From Nemertoderma westbladi (taxonomy: Eukaryota; Animalia; Xenacoelomorpha), in contig JAUCBJ010008172.1 in the NCBI GenBank assembly GCA_032718475.1, positions 1 to 64,000 of the forward strand: a stretch of 64,000 bases of DNA, written 5' to 3'. The position numbers were made by a program, and so were the translations under genes. Every line of letters starts with the position of its first letter. Positions within the stretch are counted from its first letter, which is position 1. Of this stretch, positions 4,368 through 55,124 are shown piece by piece. The notes under the pieces are model-generated. The model made no database searches. It was not told the origin of the DNA and saw only the letters and a program-made list of their open reading frames with translations.

Positions 4368-5027
4368 TGTTCGCGCTTTTAGACCCTTTAGCAGTTTAAC
4401 CTGCCGATTTAAATGTCCTTTTAATTATAAATCGACTTTTGCCCTTACCAATTACCTGGTGTACTGAAGTTACATCCGCCGAAGGCAGTCCGTGCGCGGC
4501 GTATGACCCACGGTGTGGGAGACTGGATTCGGGTTCCGGAGGAAGTATTGCGGTGTAGGCTACTTTGTATCATTCGATTGATCTTCTACTATATAATCTC
4601 CGACAACTATATTTACTTTCGGGGAAATATTAACCGTTAGTTCCTTTGGGGCGTGGCGCTTTAAGTATAAAACAGAGTTATGACTTACACTAATCACAAC
4701 TACAGTAGATGGCTATAGAATCTCGTAAATAGCGCATTCTTTAGGAGATGCTTTATTAACCTTCACACTACTAGGATTCTCAGAAAAACTATAACTGCGC
4801 ATGCACCAATTTCCACAGGTCTCTATTGGCATAAGTGGGAAGATTCCTCTGATTGGCTGAAATATGCCCAAACAAAGAAACCTCCACGTACACAAAGAAT
4901 CAGCTGACAGATTTCGTCATCTTGGTTCTAATTTCTGACCGACGCGTAGTTGAACAATTTTTGGCCTTTTTAGAGTATTCAGCGCATTGCGTAAAAATGA
5001 CTCATTATGTCCGCAAAAGCTTTTACA
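4368..5027 (-). mobile_element. Solo LTR (660 bp) related to the LTRs of the RT-less Bel/Pao family at 21925 and 53869
   Basis: Termini TGTTCGCGCTTTT...CAAAAGCTTTTACA are shared with those LTRs, as are internal blocks (GTTTAACCTGCC, ATATAATCTC, GCATTCTTTAGGAGATGCTTT). 5-bp TSD ACATT at 4363-4367 and 5028-5032. Confidence 0.9.
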
Positions 5028-7275: not shown

Positions 7276-7526
7276 GTAATTGAATCAGAGCTGCCGCCCT
7301 AGTTGAACTCAGTGACTACCAGCCACCAATCTGTAGAAGAGAGATGAGTCAGTCAGGAGAGACGACACCGACGCGGACCCCGGACGAAGAACTAACGATC
7401 CGTGAGGCCGCGACCAGACGGTATAGGCCCACGACGCCGGACCCATCGGTAACGGGTGATCCGGCAGTTCGGGACTAGGGGGGCCGTCTGGAGCCAGAGG
7501 TCGAGTCGAGAGGAGGGGGAGTCGAG

Positions 7527-20882: not shown

Positions 20883-20887
20883 TTGAC

Positions 20888-21477: not shown

Positions 21478-21924
21478 TACTACTACTACTACTAGGATCG
21501 GCATGCTGCATTGCAGCTGCATTTTTAAGAATGCTGTGCCGGCTTGTCAACAAAATTGCACCGCCACAACTCCCTATCACCCATGACATTTGCTAGATCA
21601 TCCGCATCTTTAAGGCCAGTGTCCTTTAAGATGCGTCTCAAGAAAGTCATGGGCTGTCCACCATGCTTATTCACTCCATGAGGCTGCCAAAGTACAAGAT
21701 TATGCACTGGCTGGTCCTCACGGCGAAAGCAATGTCCTGCAAAGCGGAGGCGATTTTGTTCTAGTGTCAAGCTTGGGGGAACCAATGAGACACCTCCAAT
21801 GTTATATAGTGTCTGGTTGGAGATGTGTGCATTGTACTTGACACAATGAACCCGGCGTAGCATTCTTGTGAATGTGCCATCCAGAGATTTGGTGTCCTCA
21901 GCAGTTAGAGCCCAGCATGGACTC
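21478..21924 (-). mobile_element. 3' part of a second truncated RTE copy with (TAG)n tail
   Basis: Near-identical to 466-905. TSD GTATCAC at 21471-21477 and 34609-34615. Confidence 0.92.
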
Positions 21925-23085
21925 TGTTTGCGCTTTTAAGACCTTTGACAGTTTAACCTGCCAAATTAGGATGTCTTTTGGATGATATATATTCTTTAGC
22001 TTATGACGAGTATTTGATACACTACATTAGCCGAAGCCAGTCTATGCGCAATCATTCACCCGCTGGATATACCCGGGAGACTGAATTCGGAGCTTAATGA
22101 TTGATGGTGTAAGCCTACCGTATTATTCGACTGATCGTAATATATAATCTCTGACAAATATTATTCACTTTCGGGAAATATTAACAGTTCCTTTAGGACG
22201 TGGCGCTCTAAATATATAAACAGAGTTATGGCTTAAACTAGACACAACGAAAAGGCTATAGATTTACGTATATGGCGCATTCTTTAGGAGATGCTTTGTT
22301 ATCAGTTACAATCATACACAATGCTGCACAATACTGCACACTAATCTGCCGACCTTCACTAAATTTGGTCACGTATAAAGAGAGCAATATATGTCGGGCA
22401 TATGAAATAGCATTAGATTCACTTCAAACCACTTAACATAGGTCGCAATCGTTTATTTGTAACCGGTCTCTCTAACCTTTAGTATATCAAGAAGGTGGGG
22501 TATCTGACTATTGATCAGTATTCCGATATAATATTTCATCAACCAATATAATGAATAATCGACAGTAAAAGCAGTAATATTAGTAAGATATGGTAAGTAA
22601 GTAAGATATGAATTGCATAGAATTGGTTTGATAAGATTGATAACAGATATACGTTCTATAATTAAGCCTACTAATGTAAAGCTAAAGAATGCTGATATAC
22701 GGAGGTGCCAAAAGCCGATGTTCTTAGGCTCTGGGCAAAAACATAACACTGAACTACTGAGTTCTGTATCCACCTCCAACACAGAGACAAAAAACGCTCT
22801 GATTGGTCAACCGAACAACGAGAGAACAAAGAAACAAAGAAATGTCGACGTGGCAATATCAGCTGTTAGCCGTCGTCATGGTAGCGACACTGTTTTCAAG
22901 AGTATCGAGCTTATTGCGTCCCGAAATTGCGGATTATGTCCTCTAAAGTACAAATACAGAAGAAATGGCTTTTATGTCCTCTAAAACACCAGTACAGTAA
23001 GGACACGGCCTTTTTATGCCCAGTAAACCAACTACAGAGTACTTTACGGGTAAAATAACCAGCTAATTACGCAAAAGCTTTTACA
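21925..23085 (-). repeat. 3' LTR (1161 bp) of the RT-less element
   Basis: Near-identical to 33315-34488 apart from 7-bp and 6-bp indels and a few substitutions. Confidence 0.95.
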
Positions 23086-23111
23086 CCGCTCCCAGAAAAT
23101 GGGATTTAAGT

Positions 23112-23555: not shown

Positions 23556-24686
23556 TTAACTCGTTTGGTACAACGTTCTCCGCCACTCTGGTGACAGGTT
23601 ATATCGTGTCAAGCCGGGACGATGGTAAGGGTTAAACGGCGATATTAAATGTCCGCGTCCCAATCCGGCTAGGTAGAATGGGCTAATATCTAGGAAGCCC
23701 ACAACTAGGGTGCCACCGACTAATTGTTCAGGTAACACTAGATCTTTGAGCAGTGAGTACAGCTCGGGAGGATCCGTCATACTAATAGGATCAAGAGTCT
23801 GAAGTCTCACTAGGGAATGAGGAGTTCTGATCGAGTATTCCGAAACTCTGATCATTGGTTTATTTAAGGATCGTCTGAGTCGAACGAGCGTAGGTGATAC
23901 ATCGAACAAGTTTCGCTCGAAACTCCCGTAAGTATAGCGAGTAAAACCGTGTTTAAAGCAACGTCTCCGCGGATGTTTATGTCTTTCCGTTTGTTGGTTG
24001 GGTCTTGGGCATTCATCGCAATAATACCCAAAAACGTACGTCTTGTAGGGGAAACGCGAGTGATCTTTCTCCAGCTTACAATATTCCTCCATCCGTTCGA
24101 AGCTATTCGGTACAACAGGTAGCGGTCGATCGGCGGTAAGATACATCATAGGGGAATAGAGCCGTTTGAGTTCTACCATGCGGTCATGATGTATACCTTG
24201 AGGATATCGAGTTTCTAGATTTTGTTGACTGGCAATATTGAGATATGTTTCTATCAGGAATTCCAGATAATCGTTGAAGTCGCTGCGTTTATCCGGCTCC
24301 TCAACGTCTTCTCTTTCGAGTCTGTTTCGAATAGAATTCTCGTGTTCCATTCTCGGTTTATCGTTCCGCCTCCGCTGGGTAGGATATTTCAATCGTACCA
24401 TTTCCCTTTTGGTGTCGACATTGTCCGTATCGTGTAAATCGATAGGATGACCAGTAGTTAAGAAGTCCACATACGTACCATTACGATGCGTATAGCGAGC
24501 GGTGAATTTCTTATAGTCCAACTCACACGTGAGCTGCTCTTGGGACATTGGCGGTTCGATATAACGACCATCGTCCTCCGCAGCAGTTGGACCAGCGTCG
24601 CCGTGTATCAAGCTATCAACAAACGCTTGTAAAGGTAGAGTATATCGCTCCCTGATACCAAGATCATCTTCTATCAACTCAATCAT
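23556..24686 (-). CDS. Accessory ORF of unknown function (376 aa) in the env-like position; possible Zn-binding motif
   Basis: ATG-initiated, with a TAGCAG acceptor-like site just upstream. Motif YYCDECPRP...HKHPRRRCFKH. Decayed homologue at ~55590-56455. Confidence 0.6.
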   Translation of the reverse strand: MIELIEDDLGIRERYTLPLQAFVDSLIHGDAGPTAAEDDGRYIEPPMSQEQLTCELDYKKFTARYTHRNGTYVDFLTTGHPIDLHDTDNVDTKREMVRLKYPTQRRRNDKPRMEHENSIRNRLEREDVEEPDKRSDFNDYLEFLIETYLNIASQQNLETRYPQGIHHDRMVELKRLYSPMMYLTADRPLPVVPNSFERMEEYCKLEKDHSRFPYKTYVFGYYCDECPRPNQQTERHKHPRRRCFKHGFTRYTYGSFERNLFDVSPTLVRLRRSLNKPMIRVSEYSIRTPHSLVRLQTLDPISMTDPPELYSLLKDLVLPEQLVGGTLVVGFLDISPFYLAGLGRGHLISPFNPYHRPGLTRYNLSPEWRRTLYQTS

Positions 24687-25504
24687 ATCTGCTATATAAA
24701 TTTATCCATATTATAATGAGTTTATATTTAGGCGAGCGGGCGTCGCTGCCTACCCCTCTCTGCCCCCGGACAGTGCGAGATCCTCAGCGCTGGTGTACTT
24801 TCGCCGAAGTGCCTATCGCCAATGTCGTAGCTGCACAACGACTACAACAACCAGAACGAGCCACTCCACCGTCCGTCCCAAAGGCTTAGATATACTTCAG
24901 GTTCTTACTGGAGAGTTAGGGTTACTTTCACAATTGCGACTCGCTACTGTAAACACACCTTAGTAGTAACATTCACCTACAAACACACAAATTCAACACA
25001 ACTGCAACAAACTGCACACATTCGGGCCATTTGTCCGTTAGTCAGTACCTTCCAGAATGTCACTGTATTTATTATGTATCCTTGGATACTAGCAGTGCGC
25101 TATTTATTCCCTATGCTATTCAATGGGGCATGCTTTCTATTGTTCTTTTAACTCACTTCTAATTCTAGCGTGGTTGTTGCCATGGTGACATTATGGAAAG
25201 CTAGCGGTAGAATTAGGGTAATTCTCATGCATACAGATCTGGGATGCTATTTAATAGTAATTCTTTAATGGTCAATATCCCCTTTATACATGATTCTATG
25301 AATTTTATCGGCTATTGACTATACATTGGAGATTCTCGCACACAAATACACTTAATAGAGTGAATCTCTGCTCCCATGATCTATTAATTAATGGAATTTT
25401 GGGAATGTTATAAATTGTATAAAATGACAATTTATTAAATTCATTGAAATATCTGAATTTAAATTTATTCCCGTAAATTTTATTATTTAATGTTAAATAA
25501 ACGT

Positions 25505-26318: not shown

Positions 26319-29300
26319 TTACGTTATGGAGTCCCTAGATATTTGTTGGATTAGGGAGGTGGTCGTGGGAAGAGTATCTTGCCTTCCATAGTTTCCGGAC
26401 AGTTTTCGGTCTCTTTCCAGTAAACATAAACGACCAGCTGGGCGATTGAGTGGTTGTGTTACTTTCTCCGCTCCCTTGGCCTGTCTAATCTTCGCCGGGT
26501 TAAGATGGGGAGGCCATTCATCTTCTTTACTTAGGAAGTCGGGTTCACCTAACCAGTCTGGAGTATCTGTAAGTTCTTGAGGAGTTGCTCCTCTGGAGGC
26601 GATGTCGGCTAGATTGATCGTCTCGGGGCAATGTCTCCGTTGATCTACATTGGAGTTGATGTCGTCATTATCTGAGGAGTATGGTGTTCCCTCAGTTGGG
26701 TCGTCAACTTCACTGCTCTCCACTTCCCGTTCACTTAATTGATATACCTGTTCTTTTGGTAATCTTTCCATAAGAGTTCTACGAGAAGGGCCAGTAAAGT
26801 ACCAACCTACTCTAGTTCTTCCCGCATAAACTTGTAGAGGTTGCGGTTGAGCAGGCCGTTTCTCCAATGTCTCGAGCGCTTCATGCGCATTTTGACCGAT
26901 GAGTATTTGGACTCCAGGGTAATCGGTGTTGAATCTAGGTATTTCAAACTGCTGGGTGAAATCGTCCTCATCCCAGTTATAAGGTTCCACTTGGCTGGTA
27001 GCGAAGTTCTTTATCGCTAACATTTTTACTGACCTTATGCTGTGTTCTCCTAGTTCATCCTGGGGGGTGGACAACGCACCTACATAATAATCTGCGATTA
27101 CTGTAGATTTCCAAACCTGCATAATTCCTGACATGTTTAGCTTAGTTCGGAACTTGGGTTGTCCAGCAAAGATGTCTTCGGCTAGTTCTTTGTCGATGAA
27201 TGTTCCTGTACTACCGGAGTCAAGGAGGGCGTTCACTACATAACTCCTTTTAGGTCCGTGGACCCTTACCTGTACTACAGGAAATTCTCGGATTCCTACA
27301 TTGGAAGGTGGTGCTTTCCAAGATGGTTGTCTGTCAGAAGTAGTTAGGGGGGGCTCGCTGTCGGTGTCTTTTTCATACGTAAGTGCTCGATACACTGCGG
27401 TATTTGTTAGGTAACAGGATTCGTTTTCGTCGGAGAATTCGTCCGTATAGAATCCTTCCATCTCAGAATATTGGTCAGTGTCGTTCACATCACTGAATTG
27501 GACATGTAGTTCGGACTCACTTACCTGACTCGGGCTGTTTCGTTCGAATTCCGTGTGCAACAAGATATGATGTTTTGCGCCGCACTTTGCACACCTTACG
27601 TCGGAGTAACAGGTTCGCCGTTGGTGTCCTCGTCTGAGGCAATTATAACACAACCGCTTATCCCACATGACTTCATGTCTGTCCTTTAGTGATTTCCTCA
27701 GGAATTCATCACACGCACTTAAACGGTGGGGCCCGTCGCACAACACACATTTGGGCTTGATGTTACTTACTTTAACATGTGCTGTGTGGTGCACGCTCGT
27801 TCTTTCCTCGGGCTTTCTCACCTGAATTCTCTTGGGAGACGTAGGAGGAGTTTTTCTTACCTGTTCTCTCCTGTCATTGGTTCGAGACTTGAATTTACTT
27901 ACCTGTTCTTTAGGCGTTTTATTGACATAATAAGCTCTATCAGTGTCTTTCCTGCTATCCTCTCCTTGAGAAGTCTGGCTTTCGCTGTCGTCTGTATAAC
28001 ACACTGGTATTACCCTTCTCCTAGAAACGGGTTTCTCACTTACCTTGTTTTCCAGTGTCTTCTCTCTGGACTGCCTTAGGAGCTGTAATTTCACTTCTCT
28101 ATCTAAGAATGACATGAGATCAGCCATGGTAGGGTCTCGTTGTTGTTGTTCCATCATATATAACACTTTCTTGTCCCAGCGTGTACCTACTCCACCCTTG
28201 GGCAAAGTAGATGCTAAGGCTCCTACAACCATAGAATTCTGGTATTCATGAGACTTACCTAACCAATCTAGTTGTCTACAGATCTCCTGAATCTCGTCGG
28301 AAAACTCTATAATCCCGCTGCTAAGAAACTTTCGGGGCGCCATTAATTTCGCATATAAATACCTAGCTATGTTAGTCCTATTACCATACCTGATGTTTAG
28401 TGTATCCCAAACTTGTCTTAATCCATCAGGATGTCCAATAAACTTTGACGCCATTAACTTGTGAGATCCTTCCAAGCACTCGATGAGGAATCTAAGTTTC
28501 TCTCCGTTGGATAGCACAGAGTTCTGTATGTTATCTTTGTAATATTCATTAAAAGGTAACCATTTCATCTCATCTCCATTGAACTTGACTATCTCTCCAA
28601 CCTTTACCGCTTGCCGGGCTTCGGATTTAGCCATTTGACGCGTAAAACTTTCTTGGGCCATCGTGTTATTTAATATCGAATTATCGGTATAGAAATTTCT
28701 CGGATTATGATCCGGTCTATAGGGAATATCATTATCAACAGGTCTATAATTACCCTTAATAGGGTTGACTATAGGAGTTTCTACTTCGCTAGCAGTATAT
28801 ATGCGTGTAGGCTCCACACCTTGTGCATGAGATACTTCAGACCTAACAGGTTGACACATTGTTACAGGGGGTGGTGGTATACCCTTTTGAGTATTTACTA
28901 ATTTATCGCGTTCTAGCGCGATACTTTGCTGCACTTCTTGCAACTCTAATCTACTTTCCCTTACTGTGCCCTTGAATTGCTGAACGGTCTCCTGCATCTG
29001 TCCGAGCAGGAGATCCATCCCCCGTCGTCTCTCATCCACCCATTCAACCGCCGAAGCGGGATTCGCCAACGTTGTAGCGGGCGGACGAGGGACAACGGGC
29101 GACAAATCATGAATATTTCGCTCGGAGTCCAGGGCATGAACTGTCTCATGGGCTGTTCTGCTGGGCACAGGTAGCTTAGTGCTGTGCAAAGGGAATTGAG
29201 AGGTAGGTTCAGGGAGTACAGGTGTCTCTACGACCGAAAGGGTGGCTTCGGGAAAAGGCCTAATTATTTCAGGCTCATCTACTATAGTAGGGAGTCTCTC

Positions 29301-31141
29301 TATTGTAATTATTTGGTCTGTGGGTTCTATACTACCTAAGTTGGTGTTATTTAGTTGCCTTCGTACAGCTGGAGGCAAATCAGGCAATTTCTGACGGTGG
29401 GATGTTCTTTTACGTCTGCTTAGATGAGATCTATTTCCTTTGCCTTCAGTGTCGGTGGTATCGCCTTCCTCAGATGATGTATAACCTTGTCTTTTAGGAG
29501 TAGATCGATTCATCATCTGCATATTACTAGCTGTTAACTGTTTATTAAAGTTGTCTTGTCTCTCTTGAAGATTTTCCAACTCTAGTTGGGTTGTCTCTTC
29601 AGATGCCCTCCGTTCTGCTTCTGCCACTGCTATTTTTCTTTCCGCTTCGGCCACCTTTCTTTCCGCTTCTGCTGCTGCCACTTTTCTTTCCGCTTCGGCC
29701 GCCTTTCTTTCAGCTTCTACTGCTGCAGCTGCCACCTTTCTTTCCGCTTCGGCCGCCTTTCTTTCCGCTTCTGCTGCTGCAGCTGCCACCTTTCTTTCCG
29801 CTTCGGCCGCCTTTCTTTCGGCTTCTACTGCTGCAGCTGCCGCTTTTGCCTCTGCCGCTGCCGCTTTTGCCTCTGCCGCTGCCTCTGCCGCTTTTCTATC
29901 CACTTCTACCGCTTTTCGTTCCGCTTCTGCCGCTGCCACTACCGCTGCTGCTGTCTTTCTATCTTCTATACGTTTTTTCTTTACTTGTTCTTCTTGAACC
30001 TTAGCGATGCGGATGCTTTCATTGAATTTAGCTTGGTTCGCAGCTAACCTATCCACATCGATTGCATCCAACACACGCTGGGCTCCTTCACTATTAGGGC
30101 TAAGCCCCTCTAACCTTCTCCTCAACTCTTCATCACCTAAAAAACGTTGATAGTCTGACAGATAGATGTCAATGGCATCCCTCTATGCGGTTTCTCTGCC
30201 GTCGCTTCACTTTCCACTTGGGAAAAAGTAGCGTCTGTTGATTCTCCATGGGTTGAGCGCTCCTCCAGCTGAGCTTTCCACTGAGCTGTTCCTTGAACCT
30301 GGCGACTCACCCGTTGAAACCAAGTCTTTACGGCAACTTGCAACGACGTGTCTTGTCTTCTTTTAGAAGCCTCCTCAAAGGCCGATAAGATTAGCCTAAT
30401 TCGCAGAATTCTTTCTCTAACTTGATAAAGCAGTTGTCCCTGCTCTTGAGGTCCTTGAGGTTGTTGAAACAGTTGTTCTTTTACTCGCTCCATAGAGCTG
30501 AAGAATCCCTGTGCGTATCCGGCTGCGGACCTCTTCCACACAGCTGGATCGATGGTTTCCTTGGCTACTCCCATCCGGTGTATGTCTTCCCAGGCAGCTT
30601 CTGATAAATCAAACGGGAGTCCGGGTCCGGGGAAGTTCCATTGCGACTCGACCATAGACTTCAGTTCTTCCCTTGTGTATCCCTCATAACTATCTTTAGT
30701 TGATCGCTTACTTCTCGCCCAATCGATCTGGTGTTCTTCCACCGCGATCAATAACCTAGTGAGTACGGCTGCAGGAAGGATGAGAAGGGGATCCGAATAA
30801 ACCGCATCCGTCATCCTTGCTCCGCGCTCGGGTGTCAGCTCTACAGTATCTTCACTACTGGAGCTGTCGGGCCGCTGAGAAATAAGTTCTTGGCTCGCGG
30901 GTTGTTGCTGTTCCGCTGCTTCTTGGTCCCGCTTGACCTGGGCTCGAGTGCCTATGATAGACCTACGATGTTGGACTAGCCTAGGTTCTGTTATTACTAC
31001 TGGAGGGATGACTTTCCTCACAGTGGGAGGTGAACTGAATTTAGGTGTGGACGGTTCTACACCCTTATCTGAGTCGCAGATAGTTACATCTAATAAACTG
31101 TCTGACAGGTTCTGCTTAGTATCAGACATGTTTGTTTGCAC
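26319..31141 (-). pseudogene. gag: Gag-protease polyprotein (~1600 aa, one frameshift ~30185) ending in fused remnants of the RNase H-connection and integrase C-terminus
   Basis: KFNGDEMKWLPF gag core; Bel-type knuckles CVLCDGPHRLSAC, CYNCLRRGHQRRTC, CAKCGAKHHILLH; ALLDSGS protease; then directly RHCPETINLADIASRG..WLGEPDFL..WP and RPAGRLCLLE. No YxDD. AEAERK repeat expansion. Confidence 0.9.
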
Positions 31142-32499
31142 AGTTGAATGCCTACTGCTATATTACAGTCTAAGCAAGTCTAGTAATTCAGCCTTAACTG
31201 CTAGCCTAGTAATTAATTACCGATACTGCTACTCAGTGTAGCGTGATATATATAATATTAGAATACCGGTATGCTTATGGTATATATAAGTATTATTATA
31301 CAGACTAGGTTTTTCACAAAATACCTTTATATAATCTTAGCACAAATATATATATATATAATAGGCCTATCGTGGATACCGGTATGCAGTTTACACTTAT
31401 AGTATATATAAGTATAATTATTAACTAGAATTAATTACAGAATACCGGTATGATTTCAGCTTAAGTTTATGAAAATAAAGATAATAAGCCTATTGTAAAT
31501 ACCGGTATATCAATTATTTTAAATAATTGAATTTCTGAATTTTAAGGGTTACTTGGTTACTTTAACTTACTTTATTGCCGTTATTTAAGCAGTAGTCCAA
31601 CTGATATTGAGACCTAATTGTTATATGGCAGGCCTACTATTTATAAATCGTTTGAGTTGATTTATAATATATATATACCCGTTTAATGGGTTTTGTCAAT
31701 GTTTGAAATAAATGTTATTATTTCTGGGGGAGTCACTACACATAAGCTGTGCGCTCTCAGTGGAGTGCTACTTGTTAGACACTAAAACAAATAATTCTAA
31801 TTTACCTAAGTTACTTAATACTACAAATTACGTACAATTCGGGTTGAGATTACAATCTCTAAATAAACACAAAAATTTAATTACAAATACACAAATACAA
31901 ATTTTTAGGGTAATTTTACAAGAAGTCTACTAACCAGCCTAACAAAGGGTTAGAATATCTGGTTATTACAACGGACAGGTTACTACGGTATTTGAAAATA
32001 ATAAGTAGTAGTAAATATACTGCGTTGTCCAGATAGGAAAATACCACCGCCTGACGACCTATAACCGTATCGCTATAGGTACTACGTTATGTATCACGGA
32101 GTGTCCCTACCTAGAAGTTAATTACCGCGGTCTACCAGAACCAACGTGCCTATTAACCACTTTACAACACAAATACACTGCCTACACACTAATTGCTTTC
32201 GGAAAGTACTGTACACTAAACCCTAAATTAGGTACAAGTACTTGTATAACAAATAATTAGTAGTTAAAAATACTTGAACAGATAAAAGAACCACGGTATC
32301 TGCCGGAGTGACCAAAGCACAAAATCTCCAGTCTTTACCTACGCCGAGCAGCCCTGATGTAGTACCGGGGTTAGTTTAACTATAACGGTATGTATAACAA
32401 ACACAATTACTGTAGGAATAAACTTGGGGATATGAATGTTGCGAATAATAGCATAAACTCTGAATAATAAATATTACGCTACGCGTACAAACCATTCAA

Positions 32500-33040
32500 A
32501 CAAAATGCAGACCAAATACTAACAGACTACTATCAAGCCTAAACAAACTACGGTATATGCAGACTCCGAAATGATTAAGTAGTATGCGTTCTAACCCAGT
32601 AGTACGACTTATTCTTTAGATGGGGGTTTACCTTACAGCTATGGCTGCCCCTACTTCCTAACCGTTCTTTATCGGACATACACTCTACACACACCGAAAT
32701 TTCCTCAAACCCAACAACAGCCAGACAACTATCCAGCCTACAAATTATCTAAATAAAATTATACGCTACCCATACAGACTACACAAACAAAGTACAGACC
32801 AAACGATGGCAGACTACTATCAAGCCTAAATAAACCACAGGACATGCAGACTCCGAAATGGTTAAGTAGTATGCGTTCTAACCCAGCAGTACGACTTATT
32901 CTTTAGATGGGGGTTTACCTTACAGCTATGGCTGCCCCTACTTCCTAACCGTTCTTTATCGGACATACACTCTACATGCACTGCAATCCGTTCAGACCTA
33001 ATCAACAGTTAGCCAACAGTCAAGCCTACAAATTATCTGT
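32500..33040 (-). repeat. Tandem ~287-bp repeat (2 units) in the 5' leader
   Basis: CAGACTACTATCAAGCCTAAA at ~32523 and ~32810. The same dimer occurs in the second copy at ~63505 and ~63793. Confidence 0.85.
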
Positions 33041-33314
33041 ACAATCTGAGCAGGCTTACACGCCTTCTGCTCAATACTGGCCTACAAATAAATAAAACTG
33101 ACAGAAATAGGCCTAAGTAAAATCCCAATAAAAACCAGGCGTCCCCGATTAATTATTAAGACCTACCGGTATATAATAATCAAATCGAATAATACTGCTG
33201 TACCTGCTGTAAGTACCGGTTCGGATGATCAGGCAGTCAGGCCTACAGGTTTCCGGTCGACCGGTACTTTCGACTAGATTGCTTACACCGCAATCCAGAA
33301 GCAATATCTGTTAT

Positions 33315-34488
33315 TGTTTGCGCTTTTAAGACCTTTGACAGTTTAACCTGCCAAATTAGGATGTCTTTTGGATGATATATATTCTTTAGCTTATGACGAG
33401 TATTTGATACACTACATTAGCCGAAGCCAGTCTATGCGCAATCATTCACCCGCTGGATATACCCGGGAGACTGAATTCGGAGCTTAATGATTGATGGTGT
33501 AAGCCTACCGTATTATTCGACTGATCGTAATATATAATCTCTGACAAATATTATTCACTTTCGGGAAATATTAACAGTTCCTTTAGGACGTGGCGCTCTA
33601 AATATATAAACAGAGTTATGGCTTAAACTAGATACAACGAAAAGGCTATAGATTTACGTATATGGCGCATTCTTTAGGAGATGCTTTGTTATCAGTTACA
33701 ATCATACACAATGCTGCACAATACTGCACACTAATCTGCCGACCTTCACTAAATTTGGTCACGTATAAAGAGAGCAATATACAATTTATGTCGGGCATAT
33801 GAAATAGCATTAGATTCACTTCAAACCACTTAACATAGGTCGCAATCGTTTATTTGTAACCGGTCTCTCTAACCTTTAGTATATCAAGAAGGTGGGGTAT
33901 CTGACTATTGATCAGTATTCCGATATAATATTTCATCAACCAATATAATGAATAATCGACAGTAAAAGCAGTAATATTAGTAAGATATGGTAAGTAAGTA
34001 AGATATGAATTGCATAGAATTGGTTTGATAAGATTGATAACAGATATACGTTCTATAATTAAGATTAAGCCTACTAGTGTAAAGCTAAAGAATGCTGATA
34101 TACGGAGGTGCCAAAAGCCGATGTTCTTAGGCTCTGGGCAAAAACATAACACTGAACTACTGAGTTCTGTATCCACCTCCAACACAGAGACAAAAAACGC
34201 TCTGATTGGTCAACCGAACAACGAGAGAACAAAGAAACAAAGAAATGTCGACGTGGCAATATCAGCTGTTAGCCGTCGTCATGGTAGCGACACTGTTTTC
34301 AAGAGTATCGAGCTTATTGCGTCCCGAAATTGCGGATTATGTCCTCTAAAGTACAAATACAGAAGAAATGGCTTTTATGTCCTCTAAAACACCAGTACAG
34401 TAAGGACACGGCCTTTTTATGCCCAGTAAACCAACTACAGAGTACTTTACGGGGAAAATAACCGGCTAATTACGCAAAAGCTTTTACA
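33315..34488 (-). repeat. 5' LTR (1174 bp) of the RT-less element
   Basis: Minus strand reads TGTAAAAG...GCGCAAACA; direct repeat of 21925-23085. Confidence 0.95.
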
Positions 34489-34493
34489 GACTC

Positions 34494-34608
34494 CCGTAGA
34501 GGAGTACTGGAACTACTGCTGCTCTAAATAATCGGACCTTAAGTTTCCGATTAATTCTCGGTGACTTCCAAATCCTGGAAAGCCTATTCAAGGCTGCCCA
34601 TGCTTTCA
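34494..34608 (-). mobile_element. 5' remainder of the interrupted RTE copy
   Basis: Matches ~906-1018 and ends at TSD GTATCAC. Confidence 0.9.
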
Positions 34609-36530: not shown

Positions 36531-37771
36531 ATCCACGAAGCTAAGGAAAATCAACTACTTTCGCTAAGAAAGATTTTCCTTAGCTGAGATGGTCTATTCA
36601 TAGTGGGCTATTTTACTTGTATGGAGCAGATTAGTTTTTTTTTGATAGGTGAAAAAACTAGTCTTTAAAAGTACCCTGAAATTTTGCATGTATATACTAC
36701 TCGTCGAGGCGCATCTTTTGGACTGGGTCTCATATCCAGGAAAAATCTGGTTTCCATGGCAACGGACTTAGAAAAAAGTCTATGTATTTCAAGTCAATAT
36801 TTATAACTCTATTTGTAGGAAAACTATAATAGATATAAACTTGGGGTTTCTCAACACAACTATAAGGTCCATAGCAGAGCCGATTGAGGTTAAATAGAAA
36901 ATCCAGTTACCTTGGCAACCGGGCTAAACAGATGTTAAAATTTATAAAATGTTAATTTGAAGCCTAAGGTTAAGGTGTTATGACTTGGGACCAACCCCTA
37001 CCCCCACTATATAACTTATTCTGCGTCCGAACTTGATTGTTCTATTTTGCAGTTACCATGACAACCGCTGTAAACAGATGTTTTTATACAAAAATTACTC
37101 ATTTGGACATAGACTTCGCTATAAAATTTTACGAAACTGGTTATCTGTTACCTAGACCACTAGTTGGAACTTTTAGTGAAACTAAAAAACATTCCAGAAA
37201 TATCTAGTTACCGTGGTAACTGGAGTTTATTACAGATTATATCATTCAAGTCTATATTCATAACTCTATTTATAGAATAACCGCAATAGATATAAACTTG
37301 GGGTTTCTCAACTCAATGATAATGACAATAGTCGAGCTGATTGAGGTTTATTAGAAAATCCAGTTACCAGCGCAACCATGGTAAACAGATGTTCAAATTT
37401 ATAAAATGGTTATTTGAAGCATAACATTAAGGTATTTCGACTTGGGACCAATCCCTACCCCCACTATATCACTAATTACGCATCCAATTTAAATTGTCGC
37501 ATTTTTCAGTTTCCATGACAACCACTACAAACAGACGTTTTAACAATTAAATCCTTTGTTTTACACATTAACTACTCAATGAAACTGAATTGAAGTATGT
37601 GTCACCTGGAACCACAAACCGGATCTTAATGTAATCCTCAGCAGTTCTAGAAAATTCCGGTTGCCATTGTAATATGAGTTTTTAAGGCATATGCCTCTTA
37701 ACTCTGTAAAGCAATAAAGTGATGAGTCAAAGAGTGTTTAATTTTCCTTAGCTTCGTGGTTGCAACCACGA
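36531..37771 (+). mobile_element. HINE-like unit 2 (head-to-tail tandem copy, 3' stem-loop absent)
   Basis: High identity to unit 1. Ends in the palindrome TCGTGGTTGCAACCACGA (37754-37771) abutting the PolB fragment. Confidence 0.7.
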
Positions 37772-37789
37772 TTTCATTGTCTCATTTTG

Positions 37790-38558
37790 CTTATGTAATT
37801 CAATCGAGAAATGTGACTTATTATTATCCAAGCCGAATCACGAAAATTTAATTATGTTCACTGATTCATTATCAGGTCACGTCCTATCTAAGACTGCGGT
37901 TTGTTTGCATAAACCTATTTTTTTAGGCCAAGCTGTATTGGACCTGTCGAAGTTAGATTATTACAGTTTCTTCTACGAGAAATTAAAGCCCCTGGAAGCC
38001 GAATTAAATTGTAGTATAAATTTGTTAGGTGGGGACACAGATTCTTTTTTTTTACAGTGTGTTGGTTTATCCCAACACCAATTTTTATCTGCGTTACAAT
38101 CAAAAAAAGTTTTAGACTGTTCAAATTATCCTATTACACATCCGTTGTATACAGTAGAACAGAAAGGGAAATATAGATATTTAAAGGATGAAGGGAAGTC
38201 TATCCCGTTTGACCAGGTTATTTTACTTAGACCAAAATATTATAGCTTTCGTGGGGGGTCAGTTCCAAAACGTGCCGCTAAAGGCGTAGGAAAAATGGTT
38301 ATAAAAAATAAACTCTCCCACGAATCATATTTAAAAGTATATAACGAGGTTAGCGAGCATTACGAATACAGTCAAAGGTTTCAATCTAATTTACATAAAA
38401 TATACACCGTTTCACAAAGAAAAAAATCGCTAACACTGTGGGAAGATAAAAGATACTACACATCGACTAATGAAAGTCTACCTTACGGCCATTATAAAAC
38501 ACATTTGGATCGTAAAGCGCCTGCCCCTAAGCTTTATATACCGCCCATTATAGAATAG
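37790..38558 (+). pseudogene. Polinton-type protein-primed family B DNA polymerase, C-terminal fragment
   Basis: KPIFLGQAVLDLSK, GDTDS, LRPKYY, AKGV, WEDKRY, SLPYGHY. The N-terminal part is missing. Confidence 0.9.
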
Positions 38559-38614
38559 CGGATTGCGATGTCTTTTAGTGTTGTCAACAGTAATATAAGT
38601 TTGAGGTTGGTTGG

Positions 38615-39151
38615 ATGGATGGTTGGTGGAGGTTGGATGGGTGCATATCATTCGATGTGCTGGCTAAACGAATTCGAAATGGAAAACTCATCTTAAAGCC
38701 TTTTCAATATATCACCAAAATTTGCGGATGGTCGTGTCTCTTTTTCCCGAGCGGTAAGGTCACTGTACTCGGTAAATCGCCTAAAATAAAAAAAATTATT
38801 AAGTATATATATAAGCATACTGATTATAAACTAACTTTTATTTCAATCAATAGCCAAACTTATATTATTAACAATCTAGACATAGACTATAGCAAATTAA
38901 TGAAAACGGTCGGGTTTCATTTTTTAGATAATTATTATAATGTGGAGGTGAAATATGAGCCGGAGATATTTAATAATATTCTTGTGCAGTTTTATCATCG
39001 GGGTAAAACTAGTTCTAATATCATAAAATTTTGCGTTTTTTACACACGAAATGTTGTATGTATGGCAAGACCCAGGATATTTCGAGTATTTTTTCCAAAG
39101 TTTTTGAATTTTATTGGTAATTTAGATAGTCATTTAGGTAGAAATATTTAA
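38615..39151 (+). CDS. Divergent TATA-binding-protein (TBP)-like protein
   Basis: Two TBP-repeat signatures, SCLFFPSGKVTVLG and VKYEPEIF...KFCVFYTRNVVCMA. 178 aa, about the size of a TBP core. Confidence 0.65.
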   Translation: MDGWWRLDGCISFDVLAKRIRNGKLILKPFQYITKICGWSCLFFPSGKVTVLGKSPKIKKIIKYIYKHTDYKLTFISINSQTYIINNLDIDYSKLMKTVGFHFLDNYYNVEVKYEPEIFNNILVQFYHRGKTSSNIIKFCVFYTRNVVCMARPRIFRVFFPKFLNFIGNLDSHLGRNI

Positions 39152-39576
39152 TATTTAATTTTTTCATTTCTGGTGCCAGTTAGGTTTGTCCGGTGGGATC
39201 TCGTTAGGTTTTTAAATAAACGTGGATATTAACATTATTCACATTATATATAACATGTTTTATCGGTAGTCTTAGGTTGTCAAGGGCGTCAATTTCATTT
39301 CTGATGTCGGTTTATATTTACATAAATCTAGTCTATCTGTCTATTTGTCGGTCTTTCTGTCAGTCAGTATGTCAAAATTAATTCATTGTTCGCGTTATAT
39401 AATGTATTTTATTAATTATTGATGTTAGGTTTTAAAGAGTGCCAGTTTCTATAATTGCTTGGTTTTATCGCGTGAAAAACCCCACCCACGCATATAATCG
39501 ATACTATTTATAACGGTGGTGGTGTTTTATTACTTACAATTATTGTTCTCGTTTATATAAGTTATTAATATATGTA

Positions 39577-39918
39577 ATGAAATCACTCAAAGCTTTAATT
39601 AAACAATTTGACGGGGATTTAAAGTTCTTATCTAACGCCTCCCTTAACCGTAGAAAAACCTTCTTACGCGTCGGCAGAACCGACGAACTTATAAGTTTTC
39701 TAATTAATATTAATCTAAATGTATTAAATGGTAACGTAAAAATTCCTGAGCAAACAATCGTGAGGTTAAAACGCCATAAAAAAACAATACGCGAGATCGC
39801 TAAAAAGCCAAAAGCAGCCAAGTATCCCATTCGAATTTATCGTAAACGATTGGTGCAAAGGGGCAGATTTATAAATCGACTAATCTCTGGTTTAATGAGT
39901 GGGCTTAACGCTTATTAG
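39577..39918 (+). CDS. Polinton basic core-type protein
   Basis: LNVLNGNVKI...RLKRHKKTIREIA...RKRLVQRGRF resembles the small basic protein with a QxGGF cleavage site found beside the ATPase in animal Polintons (recognised from memory). Confidence 0.65.
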   Translation: MKSLKALIKQFDGDLKFLSNASLNRRKTFLRVGRTDELISFLININLNVLNGNVKIPEQTIVRLKRHKKTIREIAKKPKAAKYPIRIYRKRLVQRGRFINRLISGLMSGLNAY

Positions 39919-40058
39919 AAAATATCACCCATAATAACGGCTGTAAGAGGCAGAAAATTAGCCCAATCCCGCCGGGGGTATAGACCTAGTACCTCTGGTA
40001 CACGCGTCAACCGTCAAGTTTCTAGGTTTCCCATCTACTGAGTGGCTACCTATCAACA

Positions 40059-40769
40059 ATGTCCCGAGAGCCGACGATATCGCAGGAACCAATCACATCA
40101 TACGACGCCTCTTTCAAGATGGGTTCGGCCATGATTATTGCGGGTCCAAGTTCTTCCGGAAAAACAGTGCTGGTATCAAAAATTGTAAAAAATAAAAATT
40201 TAGTTTTTGATATAACCCCGAAGCATGTATTATTCTTTTATGGCGCCACCCCACCAGAATTCCCAGGTATAACACATCTATTCAAAGGTTTACCGCAAAA
40301 AATTAATTCTATTTTCCGCGAAAACGATCTAATTATTATAGACGACTTGTTAAGCGAAAGTAAGAGTGATGAGAGTTTGACAGAAAGCTTCACAAAAACC
40401 TGCCATCATACTTCCTGTTTCATTATCTATATAACACAAAATTTCTTCAGTAAAGGGGCGGAAACACGGACTAGAAGTCTAAATGCCCAATATTGTATTT
40501 TCACAAAAAATCCCCACGACGCAAGTCAAATAAGTTATATAGCGCGGCAAGTGTACCCAAAAAATAGCAATTTTATTGTTCAAGCATATAGTGACGCCAC
40601 ACAAAAACCATTCACACACCTTCTCTTAGACTTTCATCAAAAAACGGATGATAGTATAAGAGTTAGGGGTGATATTTTAAACCCATTAGGGCAAACTGTT
40701 TATCAACCCACGAACACGAACTCTAACACACCTCACCAACGCCCTGAGGCTCAGTCTATACCGCAGTAG
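40059..40769 (+). CDS. Polinton A32/FtsK-like DNA packaging ATPase
   Basis: Walker A IIAGPSSSGKT, Walker B LIIIDD, ITQNFF, RSLNAQY, AYSDAT.KPF.HLLLDFH, RVRG. Confidence 0.93.
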   Translation: MSREPTISQEPITSYDASFKMGSAMIIAGPSSSGKTVLVSKIVKNKNLVFDITPKHVLFFYGATPPEFPGITHLFKGLPQKINSIFRENDLIIIDDLLSESKSDESLTESFTKTCHHTSCFIIYITQNFFSKGAETRTRSLNAQYCIFTKNPHDASQISYIARQVYPKNSNFIVQAYSDATQKPFTHLLLDFHQKTDDSIRVRGDILNPLGQTVYQPTNTNSNTPHQRPEAQSIPQ

Positions 40770-40890
40770 CGACGCCGCGCGAAAACCATTTTCACACCTT
40801 GTTTAGACTTTCACCAAAATTAGGTTATTATCGGTCCATGAACGTGAACTCTAGTATATAGTATTAATATATTAATAATGATATATAACG

Positions 40891-41340
40891 ATGAAAAATA
40901 ACGAGATTAGCCTCGGAAATTTTAAGAAGTTGTATCTAGTTTCTACTTTATTAACGGATACTTATAATAATAATAATAAGAAAAGCAATAATATAATACA
41001 ACCGCTAGATGGTGTGACAATTTTATCCCAGAAAGCCAAACGATTGTTGAGTTATTTGATGCGATTCTCGCGAGACAGAGTACGGTGGAGTGATAATAAT
41101 AAACTCTATATACAAAATAAACTTATACCCGGAGCGAATATTGATCATTTGATTGAATTGCTGACTACAAAAAAAAAATAAGAAAAACACCAAAATAATT
41201 CCAGGACAAACAACATTTTTGGGGTTATTAAAACGATTAAGGATACCAAAACGATTAATTGGTCGCGGTTGGTTGAAACGGCAAAGGGTCCGTGTGACCC
41301 CCTCCAACGCAAAACGCGTCGACGCGTGGAAACAATACGT
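40891..41340 (+). pseudogene. Conserved Polinton protein between ATPase and integrase (interrupted near poly-A at ~41170-41181)
   Basis: KAKRLLSYL...VRWSDNNKLYIQNKLIPGANIDHLI...IPGQ..F...LKRLRIPKRLIG pattern is typical of animal Polinton ORFs upstream of the integrase. Confidence 0.55.
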
Positions 41341-41469
41341 AGGACTACAATAAATCGACGTGCGGAAACAAAACGCGGGATAACATTAAAATAGTAGTAT
41401 GTTTTTTGAACGTTTCATATTAAGTATTAACTGTCATTGCAAGTGTTTTCTACCGCGACACGACACAAC

Positions 41470-42280
41470 CGATGGGGAGAATCGTAGAAAATCGAACAAA
41501 CAAACGACTGGGAAGAATATATTACGATGTTTCAAATGCTGCCGGTTTCGTTCGCCGGCTAGGCGCCATTACCCGACATCGGTTATTATCGGTCCATGAA
41601 CGTGAACTCTAGTATATAGTATTAATATATTAATAATGATATATAACGATGAAAAATAACGAGATTAGCCTCGGAAATTTTAAGAAGTTGTATCTAGTTT
41701 CTACTTTATTAACGGATACTTATAATAATAATAAGAAATGTACAGAATTTTCACGAGGAGACAGAATAGAGAATGGATGAGTATATTGCCAAAAATATTG
41801 GTTGCATATAATAATTCAATACATAGAACCATTGGTATGGCGCCAAACTCAGTCAATAAAAATAATGAAACTGACTCATTTTTAAAACTATATGGCAGTG
41901 TGGGCCATCCCAATAAAAAGAAACGCCGCGAACAGCGTCGAGTTTATTTCAAAGTTGGCGATAAAGTGTGTCTGAGTTTAACCGCGACGCCATTTTCCAA
42001 AGGATATACACCTAACTATACCAGGGAAATTTTCGAAATTTCTAGAATACGGATGGATCGAGAGCCGTACCCTATGTACGAAGTTATGGATGTGAATAGG
42101 CGTGTTATTAAAGGGACATTTTATCAATATGAAATGAAAAAGTTGAAAGAACCGTTTGAGTTCTTACCAATTGAAAAAGTAATCAAGGAAAAAGTAATAA
42201 ACAAAAAAACAGGGAAAAAACAATACCTGGTAAAATTCGTTGGTTATGCGAAGCACCGGTGGGTTGATAGGATACAATAA
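41470..42280 (+). pseudogene. Polinton retroviral-like integrase with C-terminal chromodomain; catalytic core deleted
   Basis: N-terminal YYDVSNAAGF (~41519). C-terminal AYNNSIHRTIGMAP, FKVGDKV, FSKGYTPNYT, GTFYQYE and chromodomain IEKVI..QYLVKFVGY..W. The middle is replaced by a copy of 40823-40983. Confidence 0.88.
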
Positions 42281-43140
42281 TGGATCGCTTACATTTGACA
42301 TTGACTTCTGACGCCAGTCTAGATAAATATCCTAACAACACCCTGAGCGATTTTACAATTGAATTGTCCAAACCTATTCCCATTACCACGGATTGGGTTG
42401 TGGGCCTAAAAGAAATACAATATGTATCAACTTATAGGAATATTGAGCAAAGATCCGGAATTTAAAATTGGCGAATACATGGAAGATGCGGATATACCAT
42501 TCCATATTGCTCCATATAATCTTATTGAAATCGATCTTAATCATGGGCTGTATGCTTCCGTTGAGTCAATTATAAATTATATTACCGTATATTTGAAAAA
42601 AAATTCCATAGCACATCATGGTTTCTCCGATGTTAAGTTTAATTATCACAAGCACACATCGAAAATACATTTGCATTCTATGAAAGGACGCTATTTCCAA
42701 TTCTACGGGGATTTAATAAATATATTTGGCTTATCGTCTTTAAAAAAAATAACATACTTGGTCTTGACGCGTTTTGGTCAATACTTTACAACCCAGAAGA
42801 CAACTTACTAAGTTTAGGCTCTAGAAATTCAGACAAAAATGGAATTGACTTTCCTGAACCCTGCGATATAACGAGGGATAGACATACAATGTTTATATAT
42901 ACAGATATAATTGAATCTTCCCACGTGGGGCATTCTATGGTTCCTCTGTTGCGGATAATCCCGTTAAAATGGCAATCATACTCATTTATAAGTCAAGAGT
43001 TCGAAGACACTCATTACAAACAGTTAAAAAATCAAAAATTTGTTAATACAATTAGTATAACGCTTCGCGATCATAAAGGAAAGCATATAGTGTTTCACGG
43101 TGGTAAAACAATTTTAGTTCTAGAACTAAAAAAACAGGAA
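42280..43140 (+). pseudogene. Polinton minor capsid (penton-like) protein, frameshifted
   Basis: LTLTSDASLDKYPNNTLSDFTIEL..WVVGLKEI at the N-terminus and MFIYTDIIE..VG..VPLLRII..ISITLRD..G..F..G.T.LVL at the C-terminus, spread over three ORFs. Confidence 0.8.
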
Positions 43141-46100
43141 CAGATTTCACGCTGAATTCTGAACTGTCTATAACACTTGACAGTGAACATACCCTAGTAT
43201 TATTTGGAGCAGAGGTTGTTACTGCTAATGACTTAATTTCTTTGAAATAACATGTCGATACATTGTGCTCATTGACTGTCTTATTTGGCCATGTGACCTC
43301 GCCCCCTAGACTCAGAAATTTGGGGCCATGTCTCCAAATATTTGAGTTTATTAATTGTTCTGCTGACAGACCTCTCGTTGGAATATCAGCCGGGTTCATT
43401 GAACCTGGACAGTGTCACCATTGGGCATTTAACTCGTTTGTTAATTTACGAATTTCTGCTAGGCGATTTTGAACAAACTGCTTACAGTTTTGGTTAGTTG
43501 ATTTTATCCAACACAAAACGTCGTAAGCGTCTGTCCACAAGTATACAGTACATTTTGTTGTTGAAAATCGTAGTCCTGTAAATGTGAACTTTGTTAATCT
43601 AGTCAAGATTAACGCCCCTAATAATTCTAGTCTGGGTATTGACTGTTTAGCCAGCTGGCATACTTTTGACTTGGTCGACAACAGTGTGACGCTGACTGAT
43701 GTATCAGAGTATTCTGCTCTGATGTATGTAACAGCCGCATATAATTGTTTACTTGCATCGGAGAACCCGCGCAATTGAATGGATACAATTTTTCGTGTTG
43801 TATTGAATAGACATCTGTTAATTTCGAAATGCCTGAAAACTAAAAGTCCATCAACCCATTTCATCCACAATGGAAGAAGGAGTGAAGGAATATTTTCATC
43901 CCATTCAACCTTTTCCTTTGCCAAAGTTTGTAGTGTCGCTTTCATTGGAGCAGTGTGTAAGGTGGGAGAAACCCCAGTGGGTTGTAAATTCTTGCAATTA
44001 ATTGCAGCACGCCCCTTTTTGATGGTGTAATGGTTCATATATATTTGCGAACACTACTTAGATCAAAACCTAATTTGTCATCATTTAGATGCCATAATTG
44101 CCCTAAAACGTGACTAGTGTTATTATTTTGTGGTTCAGGTTGTGCAATAGAAACTTTAGCATGTTTGAATATCTTCAAGTTTGTTATCTGTACTATCTAT
44201 AGGATTTTTTGTGATTACTATTTTTGCTAGTTTCTATTTGTTTCATTTCATTTTCTTCGGTTTGATTGAAAATTTGTCTTAGTTCTTTATCGTTTGTTTT
44301 CCAACGACGAATATTAAAACCGTCTCTAGCTAAGATTGCCTTTGTCGCCAATTGGAGTTGTCGACCTTCTGATATGTCATTGACCCCCGTATTTAAATCG
44401 TCTACATGCATATTATTGTCTTGTAGTTTAGGGATTGCAGTCGCTTCTGGAGTACTTGCGGATTTCGATTCTAATTGTAAGTGATGTTCTAACATGGCAC
44501 TTAATTAGGAACCGAAGGTTACTTTCTGTAAGAATTTGATGTAATAGTAGTAATAGTAATAGTAATATTTTGAAGCGAAATAACATAAAAACGGCTCTAA
44601 CGATTTTGTTAAAATTTTGCATAACGCAATGTTTTGATGACCACTATCGTTTCCCGCTGGTCCCATGTCTGTCCATAGAATGTGGGCTCGAAAAATAGTC
44701 ATAAACGAAAAAACGCCATAGGCGCAATGATAAAACACCAGCTGGAGTGCATGAAAAATGTATAGAGGGCCTAGTGATTCTATTCAATAGAGAAAGGGCC
44801 AACTAACAAGGATGTACTTTCTGTGCCAAGTTTTTATTTAATCACTCACTCTTTCAACCCAGACTATAAGCAAACTTTAACTTGGTTAGTAATCTACTAT
44901 TATCCCATCAGCTGAATAACTCTTCCCCGTGCTTCCTAAGGGAATATCTACAAGGTGGTGGTGGGTTGTGGGTCAGCGGAATGAATTTTAGTTACACACA
45001 TAGTGCTGGTTACCGTTAATGGTACTATACTCAGCTAATAATAAAATAATAATTGATGTATTTAAAAATCCGAGAGGGGGGTGAGTTAGTGACTTGCTTG
45101 GCAAACATTAATTATATTAATCTGTCAAACCAGAGGGAATACAGAGTGGGATCTACAGTACCTGTCTCTGTATAACTTTTTGCCCAGCTGATAGCTCCTT
45201 TAATCCAACACAAACTGTTGCCCTGGATTCAATGAATGCGAATGTCTATTACAGTAGGTTCCTGGGAAAAGCTGGCCACGTGAATGACTTTTTAGTTATA
45301 GAGTAGTGTACACGAGTGAGGCTTAACTCTCTCAGCGAACAATTATAATTATACTATGGCTAGTTATATATTCTGATATTGGCTTCCGACACACACACTG
45401 AAACCTACACCTAAGTTCGCTGGTTATTCGCAGTTCTGACTCGCCATATATGAACCTAACTGTATGGTACTATTGATAAACTATACTAATTGCAATGTTC
45501 AATTAAAATCAGAGTTTGGAGGTCTAATTATGTTTTGGCAACATTAATACTATGAGTGGTGTTTGGTATTATATATAATTTTGATGTAGACAGGATATAT
45601 GTTGCCCTAACTGCTTTAATAATTACTAGGAACAGATTATGAGATATATGAGTTTCTTTTCCCTAAATTGAGAATTTAACATTGAGGCGGGATATTAATT
45701 CGCCAAGGTAGGTTTTGCGTCCACTTCCCCCCCTGTCTCCTTTGTTCACTACCTTGGTGCAATTTTTTATTATAAATGCTGAACATACGTGCAAATTACA
45801 GTATTAGTATAGGTAGTGCTGGCTGATACTGGGTGCTCATATTTGTATTGTGACGACGTCAGACCGAAAGCTGCACCTGTGTATCTATATGCTTGGAGTT
45901 CTTGATTTTCTGAGTTTACATCTTTTATGTTTTTTATCCATAAAACGTAAATAGTTTCTGTCCGCTTGATCAATCTGACAACGCATAAATGCTTGTTCTT
46001 TATCGGCGCTTATTCCTATATTTTGGATGCGGAAATATAGTGAATTGTGGCATTTATAACGTTGTCATATCTTTCAAGGAGATCAGTTTTGATTAAACGC

Positions 46101-52246: not shown

Positions 52247-52269
52247 AGACACAAACGTCTGCAACCCAC

Positions 52270-53868: not shown

Positions 53869-55124
53869 TGTTCGCGCTTTTAAGACCTTTGGCAGTTTAA
53901 CCAGCCAAATCTATATGTCTTCTAGGTTATAAATCTACTCCAGCCTATGACAAGTATTGAACACCTATAATAATTCTAACATTAGCCAAAGCCAGTCTGT
54001 GCGCGACCATTCACCCGCTGGATATACCCGGTAGACTGGATTTGGATGCTTTAATTTGATTGCGGTGCAGGCCTACCGTACTATTCGATTGATAGTTAAT
54101 ATATAATCTCTGACAAATATTATTCACTTTCGGGAAATATTAGCAGTTCCTTTAGGATGTGGCGCTCTATCTATTTAAACAGAGCTATGTCTTACACTAT
54201 ACACAACAGTATGTCTTATAGATCACCAAAGTGCATTCTTTAGGAAATGCTTTGTTACTCGGTCAAGCACACACAGACTATTGCACACAACTGCACACTG
54301 AATTGCCGACATTCACTGATTTTAATCATATATAAAGAGAATAACAACCGACATTTGTAGGGCCTATTAAGTAGCATTGAACTCACTACAAACCACGATA
54401 ATGTATGTCGCAAATTGTTATATGTAACCGGTCTCTCTAACCTTAGTGTATCAAGAAGATTGGGTTTTCGGATCGTTATCAATATTCTTCCCAATAATAA
54501 TATGTAAACGAACGATACAATTAACAACACAGTAAATAGCAGTAAATAATGCGGCGAAAAGCAGTTTACGTCAGGGTGCTTAATCAGATGCCGAGGTGCT
54601 GTACCAAAACCGAGTTAACCGAGACCGAGACCGAGTTGACCAAGATAACAGTTTGATGATCTTATAATTAAAGACGCTCTAATGTCAGAAAACATTCCCC
54701 GGCCGGTGTTCTAGGCGTGGGGGAAACGTCCGTACTGAATCCTGTAATTCTGCTGTACAGCTTTTACACAAAGAGGGAATCTCTGATTGGTCGAATGACA
54801 AAAAGCTCCACATGGATACAGCTGATAGATGTCGTCATTTTGAGCTGAGCAGAACAAAGAACCAAGGCAAGGCTCCGGGCAAGCTACACGTGTAAAGCTC
54901 AGCCATTAGCTGTCGTCATAGTAACGACACTGTTTCAAGAGGATCTAGGGCGTTGCGTCATAGAATTGCTAATCATGTCCTCTAAAGTACACATACAGAA
55001 TAAATAACTTTTATGTCCCCTAAAAACACCGGTACAGCAATGACACGGCCTTTTATGCCTGCTAAACCAACTACAGAGTACTTTACGGGGAAAATAACCG
55101 GTCAATTCCGCAAAAGCTTTTACA
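53869..55124 (-). repeat. 3' LTR (1256 bp) with a diverged central part
   Basis: TGTTCGCGCTTT...CAAAAGCTTTTACA termini; both ends align to 21925-23085. Confidence 0.9.

Follow-up and report, generated by a model that had tools for sequence, protein, structure and literature searches.

A BEL/Pao LTR element of Nemertoderma westbladi with a primer-binding position complementary to its own LTR: a likely case of self-primed reverse transcription

How does an LTR element begin reverse transcription if the sequence behind its 5' LTR does not look like a tRNA-binding site? The replication of BEL/Pao elements is poorly understood and, according to the ICTV, is assumed to be primed by tRNA (PMC8742986). 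Members of the Belpaoviridae such as Tas have an 18-nt primer-binding site (PBS) for tRNA-Arg or tRNA-Gly and tRNA-primed replication (PMC8742986), and a tRNA-Tyr site is given for Achilles (PMC4580426, excerpt). A stretch of 64,000 nucleotides from Nemertoderma westbladi, here called the window, contains an element of this kind that departs from the pattern. It has no tRNA-type PBS, and its primer-binding position pairs with its own LTR. On the analysis presented below, self-primed reverse transcription is the likely explanation.

The element was found by self-comparison of the window and occupies 34488-21925 of the minus strand. Its 5' LTR (33315..34488, 1174 nt) and 3' LTR (21925..23085, 1161 nt) have TG...CA ends. 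They are bounded by a 5-bp target duplication, GAGTC (34489..34493, with the second copy at 21920-21924), and a short purine tract (23086..23093) adjoins the 3' LTR. The LTRs differ by 4 substitutions in 1161 aligned bases and by 13 gap columns, a near-identity that points to recent mobility of an element with the present PBS. The insertion target was a LINE, of which the empty site lies near 901-905. The leader carries a tandem duplication of about 287 nt (33012-32440, minus strand), which is also kept in the diverged copy described below.

The reading frame at 26319..30182 (minus strand) was identified by Pfam and tblastn as Gag plus an aspartic protease with a terminal remnant of BEL/Pao Pol. 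Gag is recognised by DUF1759 (Pfam, E 9.9e-13) and by zinc-knuckle-like motifs, and the protease by a weak Asp_protease_2 match (Pfam, E 0.0037). The Pol remnant, about 75 aa at 26654-26412, comes from the RNase H-distal part of the protein. All five full BEL/Pao proteins tried in tblastn match the Gag, protease or Pol-remnant stretch. No tblastn match to a reverse transcriptase (RT) or integrase was found between the LTRs. The element is a young, non-autonomous BEL/Pao derivative. Two more minus-strand frames are present: one of 341 aa from stop to stop (30137..31162), which lies upstream, overlaps the gag frame and has no Pfam family, and an extra sense frame of 381 aa (23556..24701) without a family, whose best atlas score of 0.79 is uninformative. 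The DUF1759 Gag, the protease, the Pol remnant, TG...CA LTRs in the 0.2-1.2 kb range, the target duplication and the purine tract are all shared with the Belpaoviridae. The length of 12.6 kb is greater than the 4.2-10 kb given by the ICTV (PMC8742986), even without RT and integrase.

Other parts of the window hold a host-gene exon with two WW domains (2703-3215, minus strand; Pfam WW, E 2.5e-23) and a third, decayed BEL/Pao element (43160-46900, minus strand; Peptidase_A17, E 9e-34), for which an LTR pair was not found. Fragments at 37752-43155 (plus strand) resemble the family-B DNA polymerase, packaging ATPase (AAA_14, E 0.0005) and integrase of a putative Polinton-like element.

The PBS position consists of the 11 nt directly 3' of the 5' LTR (33304..33314, minus strand). 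It reads ATAACAGATAT from 33314 to 33304, and its reverse complement occurs without a mismatch as ATATCTGTTAT at 34047-34037. The first base beyond the LTR is already paired, as the first-pass annotation had claimed, and the stated absence of TGG was confirmed, since the first TGG lies 18 nt beyond the LTR. The segment 34037..34047 (minus strand), complementary to the PBS at 11 of 11 positions, is the candidate self-primer core; the loop between the two is 722 nt long. The sole exact copies of this 11-mer in the window are one per LTR, the second being at 22640..22650 (minus strand) inside the 3' LTR.

A Watson-Crick run of 11 starting from leader base 1 arose in 6 of 5000 dinucleotide shuffles of the LTR, and in 84 of 5000 when G-U pairs were allowed. 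As a control, the flanks behind four 3' or solo LTR ends were compared with their own LTRs and gave runs of 4, 4, 5 and 5. Another perfect 11-nt match between leader and LTR exists at leader offset 119, among 150 offsets tested. Self-primers have been recognised by at least 10 bp of LTR complementarity that starts 0-5 bp from the LTR (PMC6317226, excerpt), and the 11 nt from +1 found here fall within this range.

The pairing had also been described as continuing in patches for about 40 nt. With the 5' LTR the extended pairing is better than that of shuffles, which equalled it in 18, 6 and 27 of 1000 cases at 30, 45 and 60 nt. With the 3' LTR it is not (366 and 364 of 1000, the latter in the 45-nt comparison). 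The 3' LTR is without a 6-nt duplication that the 5' LTR has within the extension stretch. Without support from the 3' LTR, the extension does not qualify as a trait of the family.

The same geometry had been reported for a first element of the window, and it was recovered there. This element, at 6727-20882 of the plus strand with LTRs at 6727-7275 and 20334-20882, belongs to BEL/Pao by its Peptidase_A17 domain (Pfam, E 4.7e-40). Its PBS position (7276..7284, plus strand) is complementary to 7085-7093 at 9 of 9 bases from +1 (34 of 5000 shuffles). Here the pairing extends further upstream; out of 1000 shuffles, 5 equalled the extended pairing when the 5' LTR was used and 4 when the 3' LTR was used. 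Each PBS fits its own LTR better than that of the other family, with runs of 11 versus 6 for the 34488-21925 element and 9 versus 5 for the first element. The two families had been called unrelated. This holds for their DNA, in which no similarity is detectable, but both are BEL/Pao and share 22-40% identity over short protein stretches. As both belong to BEL/Pao, the proposed self-priming may have a single shared origin in them and need not have arisen independently.

Pol homologues show 24-33% identity among 120 of 162 listed and lead to no clade assignment. No relatives were confirmed in viral contigs searched with the first element's Pol and with a 30-protein alignment. A pattern of LTR-end DNA gave 17 metagenome and 2 viral-contig loci, and none of the 19 was LTR-like beyond the pattern itself.

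The first element has several features of its own. Its gag-pol region (10101-15788, plus strand) is split over several frames with stops, its LTRs differ at 7 of 549 bases, and its long 5' region contains further reading frames (7479-10041). An extra frame of 891 aa (16957-19632, plus strand) follows the integrase and has several CCHC-like motifs and no Pfam match. For its first 360 aa, the atlas gives a lead (score 0.92) to clusters of 3'-5' exonucleases in which 50% of members carry PF01612; as speculation, an exonuclease-like product could trim the primer end. The repeat that hosts the element (6410-6726 with 20883-21470) has a 399-aa frame of no known family, and uninterrupted copies of this repeat lie at 48202-49401 and near 51000-52551.

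A diverged copy of the 34488-21925 element, copy 2, runs off the end of the window, leaving its 3' LTR at 53869..55124 (minus strand). As the first-pass annotation noted, it reads ATAACAGTTTG at 54645-54655 of the plus strand. This primer-like site (54655-54645) can pair with the copy-1 PBS at 7 of its 11 positions. The primer core sits in a part of the LTR that cannot be aligned between the two copies, and within this otherwise unalignable stretch both retain TTAATTATA followed by CTGTTATC. The first of these motifs lies at 34054..34062 (minus strand), just upstream of the primer core. The 7-mer that pairs with the start of the PBS appeared in 61 of 5000 shuffles of the copy-2 segment. A third subfamily is represented by a solo LTR at 4368..5027 (minus strand, target duplication AATGT), which is without the primer-core stretch.

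The comparison with sequencing runs covered four of seven, all of them contigs. The LTR-leader junction was compared with contigs of two public DNA runs (197 and 62 records), one of which may be the window's own source. Among 12 of 20 loose ends, two contigs stop fitting at 33304 (X1) and two at 33303 (X3). A contig of 97 nt matches 33303-33352 except at one base and then departs. These end points lie 11-12 nt beyond the LTR, so in some diverged leaders the PBS is kept while the sequence right behind it has changed. A loose end at 33308, expected for a leader of the copy-2 type, was not seen among the same 12 of 20. No pair of compensatory PBS and LTR changes was seen directly, and the variant-letter table for the junction is empty. 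Among 40 of 314 variant-letter entries for the LTR, one X5 contig has 6 changes within 34008-34033 and no entry within 34034-34064; this is too weak a signal to be counted. Another observation from X5 is a low-depth contig that joins 34063, just upstream of the primer core, to 33217 in the leader.

A CCAATCAGAG box lies at 34200..34209 (minus strand), and each of the window's four LTR types has one such box. The position of the CCAAT box, previously given as near 34205 and about 150 nt from the complementary segment, is 34209, which puts it 162 nt upstream of the primer core. Two TCAGT motifs (34151..34163, minus strand), with their A at 34161 and 34153, follow it by 48 and 56 nt and precede the primer core by 106-114 nt. 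They are initiator-like and are candidates for the transcription start. In copy 2 a counterpart is present at 54736, and its spacing from the CCAAT box of that copy is almost the same. The motifs suggest that transcription begins about 110 nt upstream of the primer core. A start near 34153 would place the pairing segment inside the RNA and give a primer of about 115 nt.

Two observations bear on the promoters of both families. The two LTR families, unrelated in sequence, have in common the CCAATCAGAG box and, downstream of it, TCAGTGTTAT (6727-7275, plus strand; 34209-34146, minus strand), possibly a common core promoter design. In the LTR of the first element, the site 7021-7030 (plus strand), whose start coincides with an initiator-like motif, pairs with the PBS over 10 nt, two of the pairs being G-U. 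The pairing is weak against shuffles (230 of 5000), and a Tf1-like 5'-terminal primer at this site is possible.

The 11 nt had been taken as significant for being the length of the Tf1 self-primer. In Tf1, the RNA's initial 11 bases anneal to the PBS, and RNase H cleaves between bases 11 and 12 (PMC7175516, excerpt). A duplex of 11 bp is predicted here as well. The argument from length is weak, given that the first element has 9 bp and that the initiator-like motifs lie about 110 nt upstream, and the agreement is probably coincidental. The Tf1 primer is the first 11 nt of its RNA, whereas the motifs suggest that the primer segment here is probably internal.

Priming by tRNA would be the conventional answer for a BEL/Pao element. 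ARAGORN found no tRNA gene in the window, and Rfam gave no tRNA-like match in 32900-34600, with two sub-threshold chance matches only. Two less usual primers were tried and rejected. A primer formed across a splice junction would pair over at most 8 nt, compared with 11 unspliced, when all GT..AG combinations of 78 donors and 66 acceptors are considered; for the first element the values are 4 and 9. A tRNA-like primer encoded elsewhere in the element is contradicted by the restriction of the 11-mer to the two LTRs and by the lack of any tRNA found by ARAGORN.

The strongest competitor of self-priming assigns the complementarity to RNA structure. In this explanation the primer-PBS helix is a long-range structural helix that serves packaging or dimerisation or, as a switch, masks the PBS, and priming falls to a host RNA, for example a tRNA fragment or another small RNA. 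The 5' region (34488-33160) contains four perfect stems of at least 11 bp, the primer-PBS helix being one of them, where 0.29 are expected (0 of 300 shuffles). The other three are 11-12 bp long, and their existence makes a structural helix a real rival. For the second perfect 11-bp stem, the leader arm is 33185..33195 (minus strand) and the LTR partner 33520-33510. As for other pairings in the region, the LTR stretch 34095-34082 (minus strand), upstream of the primer core, can pair perfectly with 33677-33667 and with 33392-33381, and the three subfamilies show no variation in the 33677-33667 arm.

Folding was predicted with a program that models nested pairs only, without pseudoknots. The primer-PBS helix formed in one of eight start and end settings (34047 to 33234), with a pair probability of 0.6-0.9; its probability was near 0 in the other settings and in all five settings of the first element. 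In longer RNAs it is outscored and displaced by helices between U5 and the leader, a result that also favours a structural role. One U5-side arm (33481..33510, minus strand) has as its predicted partner the leader at 33303-33274, just after the PBS. Together with the primer-PBS helix, the resulting helix, which has an energy of -25.7 kcal/mol (4 of 200 shuffles), would make up a pseudoknot. No comparable U5-leader helix is found in the first element (84 of 200 shuffles).

A host primer has precedents, in that half-tRNA primers without TGG are described for copia lineages (PMC6317226, excerpt). Against this explanation, a structural helix need not begin exactly at +1 in two unrelated families. 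The PBS also differs between the families and in each fits its own LTR, so that host priming would need two different primers, both of them mimicked by the LTR. A structural helix combined with a host primer is on balance unlikely.

Less probable still is priming from the 3' LTR. The RNA would end or be cut at the second copy of the 11-mer (22650-22640), and this end would fold onto the PBS of the same or a co-packaged RNA. Such a route is compatible with the presence of the 11-mer in both LTRs. An AT-rich 9-mer, found in copies 1 and 2 at 17-18 nt upstream of the 3' end of the core, is roughly where a 3'-end signal would be; AATAAA is not conserved between the copies. If the RNA carried a poly(A) tail, its 3' end would be blocked, and no precedent was found in the literature examined. 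The conserved 9-mer is not a canonical poly(A) signal, which counts against the route as well.

Least probable, by a little, is a chance match or a historical leftover without present function, such as a one-off template switch that copied LTR into leader: the sequence is AT-rich and a second 11-nt run occurs at one other independent position among the 150 leader offsets, but both families match from +1 (6 and 34 of 5000 shuffles), the first 11-12 nt are kept in diverged leaders, and the LTR-side core is kept in copy 2.

Self-priming could proceed as follows. RNA polymerase II would initiate within the 5' LTR at a point upstream of 34047, with the TCAGT motifs near 34153-34161 as the probable place. 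The RNA would then fold so that 34047-34037 pairs with 33314-33304, perhaps aided by the U5-leader helix in a Tf1-like pseudoknot. A nuclease would cut 3' of 34037 and free a 3'-OH; by analogy with Tf1, this could be the RNase H of a helper RT. RT would extend the primer, and the first base copied would be the terminal A of the LTR. Pairing of the primer's 3' end with base +1 would set the LTR end at CA without a spacer, as is seen in the sequence. RT and integrase would arrive in trans from an autonomous BEL/Pao partner. For a start near 34153, this scheme would give a capped primer of about 115 nt that is held in place by 11 bp.

A broader proposal can be put forward tentatively, with somewhat less than even confidence. 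A lineage of animal BEL/Pao elements may have dropped tRNA priming and may prime instead with a long capped fragment of its own 5' end (about 70-115 nt). This fragment would be cut internally, docked by 9-11 bp in a pseudoknotted fold of LTR and leader, and processed in trans by autonomous members for their RT-less dependants.

The closest known systems are found in the Tf1/sushi group, which includes Tf1 and Tf2 of Schizosaccharomyces pombe, Tj1, Tosmo1-3 and Tcry1. They likewise have no tRNA site, and their PBS, directly behind the 5' LTR, has its complement within the LTR. The Tf1 "pretzel" structure has two duplexes that join sequence next to the PBS to LTR sequence downstream of the primer (bioRxiv 10.1101/2022.12.06.519325, excerpt), and 33510-33481/33303-33274 is a possible counterpart of such a helix. 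The group consists of Ty3/gypsy chromoviruses; the present element is BEL/Pao by Pfam and by its homologues, and hence is not a member. It further differs from Tf1 in the 722-nt loop and in having no RT of its own. Self-priming was likewise deduced from LTR-PBS complementarity, with the same criterion, for the systems of PMC6317226 (excerpt), which belong to another superfamily and another host kingdom.

No report of self-priming in BEL/Pao was found in the literature examined, a body of work that largely excludes subscription journals, Repbase reports and supplements. A term look-up in the available text of the BEL/Pao papers PMC3118150 and PMC554778 gave no mention of PBS or tRNA. Self-priming of BEL/Pao is likewise not reported in the portions consulted of PMC3601003, PMC5445492, PMC6934838, PMC8220671, PMC13524379 and PMC3391268. 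Hairpin or self priming has been proposed as the ancestral state, with tRNA priming as a late addition (PMC3601003, excerpt).

If the present reading is true, tRNA-free self-priming reaches a third superfamily of LTR elements, and the finding bears on the choice between ancestral self-priming and repeated origins. A long capped fragment, if that is what primes, would be a primer unlike the 11-mer of Tf1. The window supplies exact coordinates for two such families, one of which is abundant in public runs. Elements of this type would be freed from the host's tRNA supply, and self-priming would also account for elements that annotation pipelines label "no PBS".
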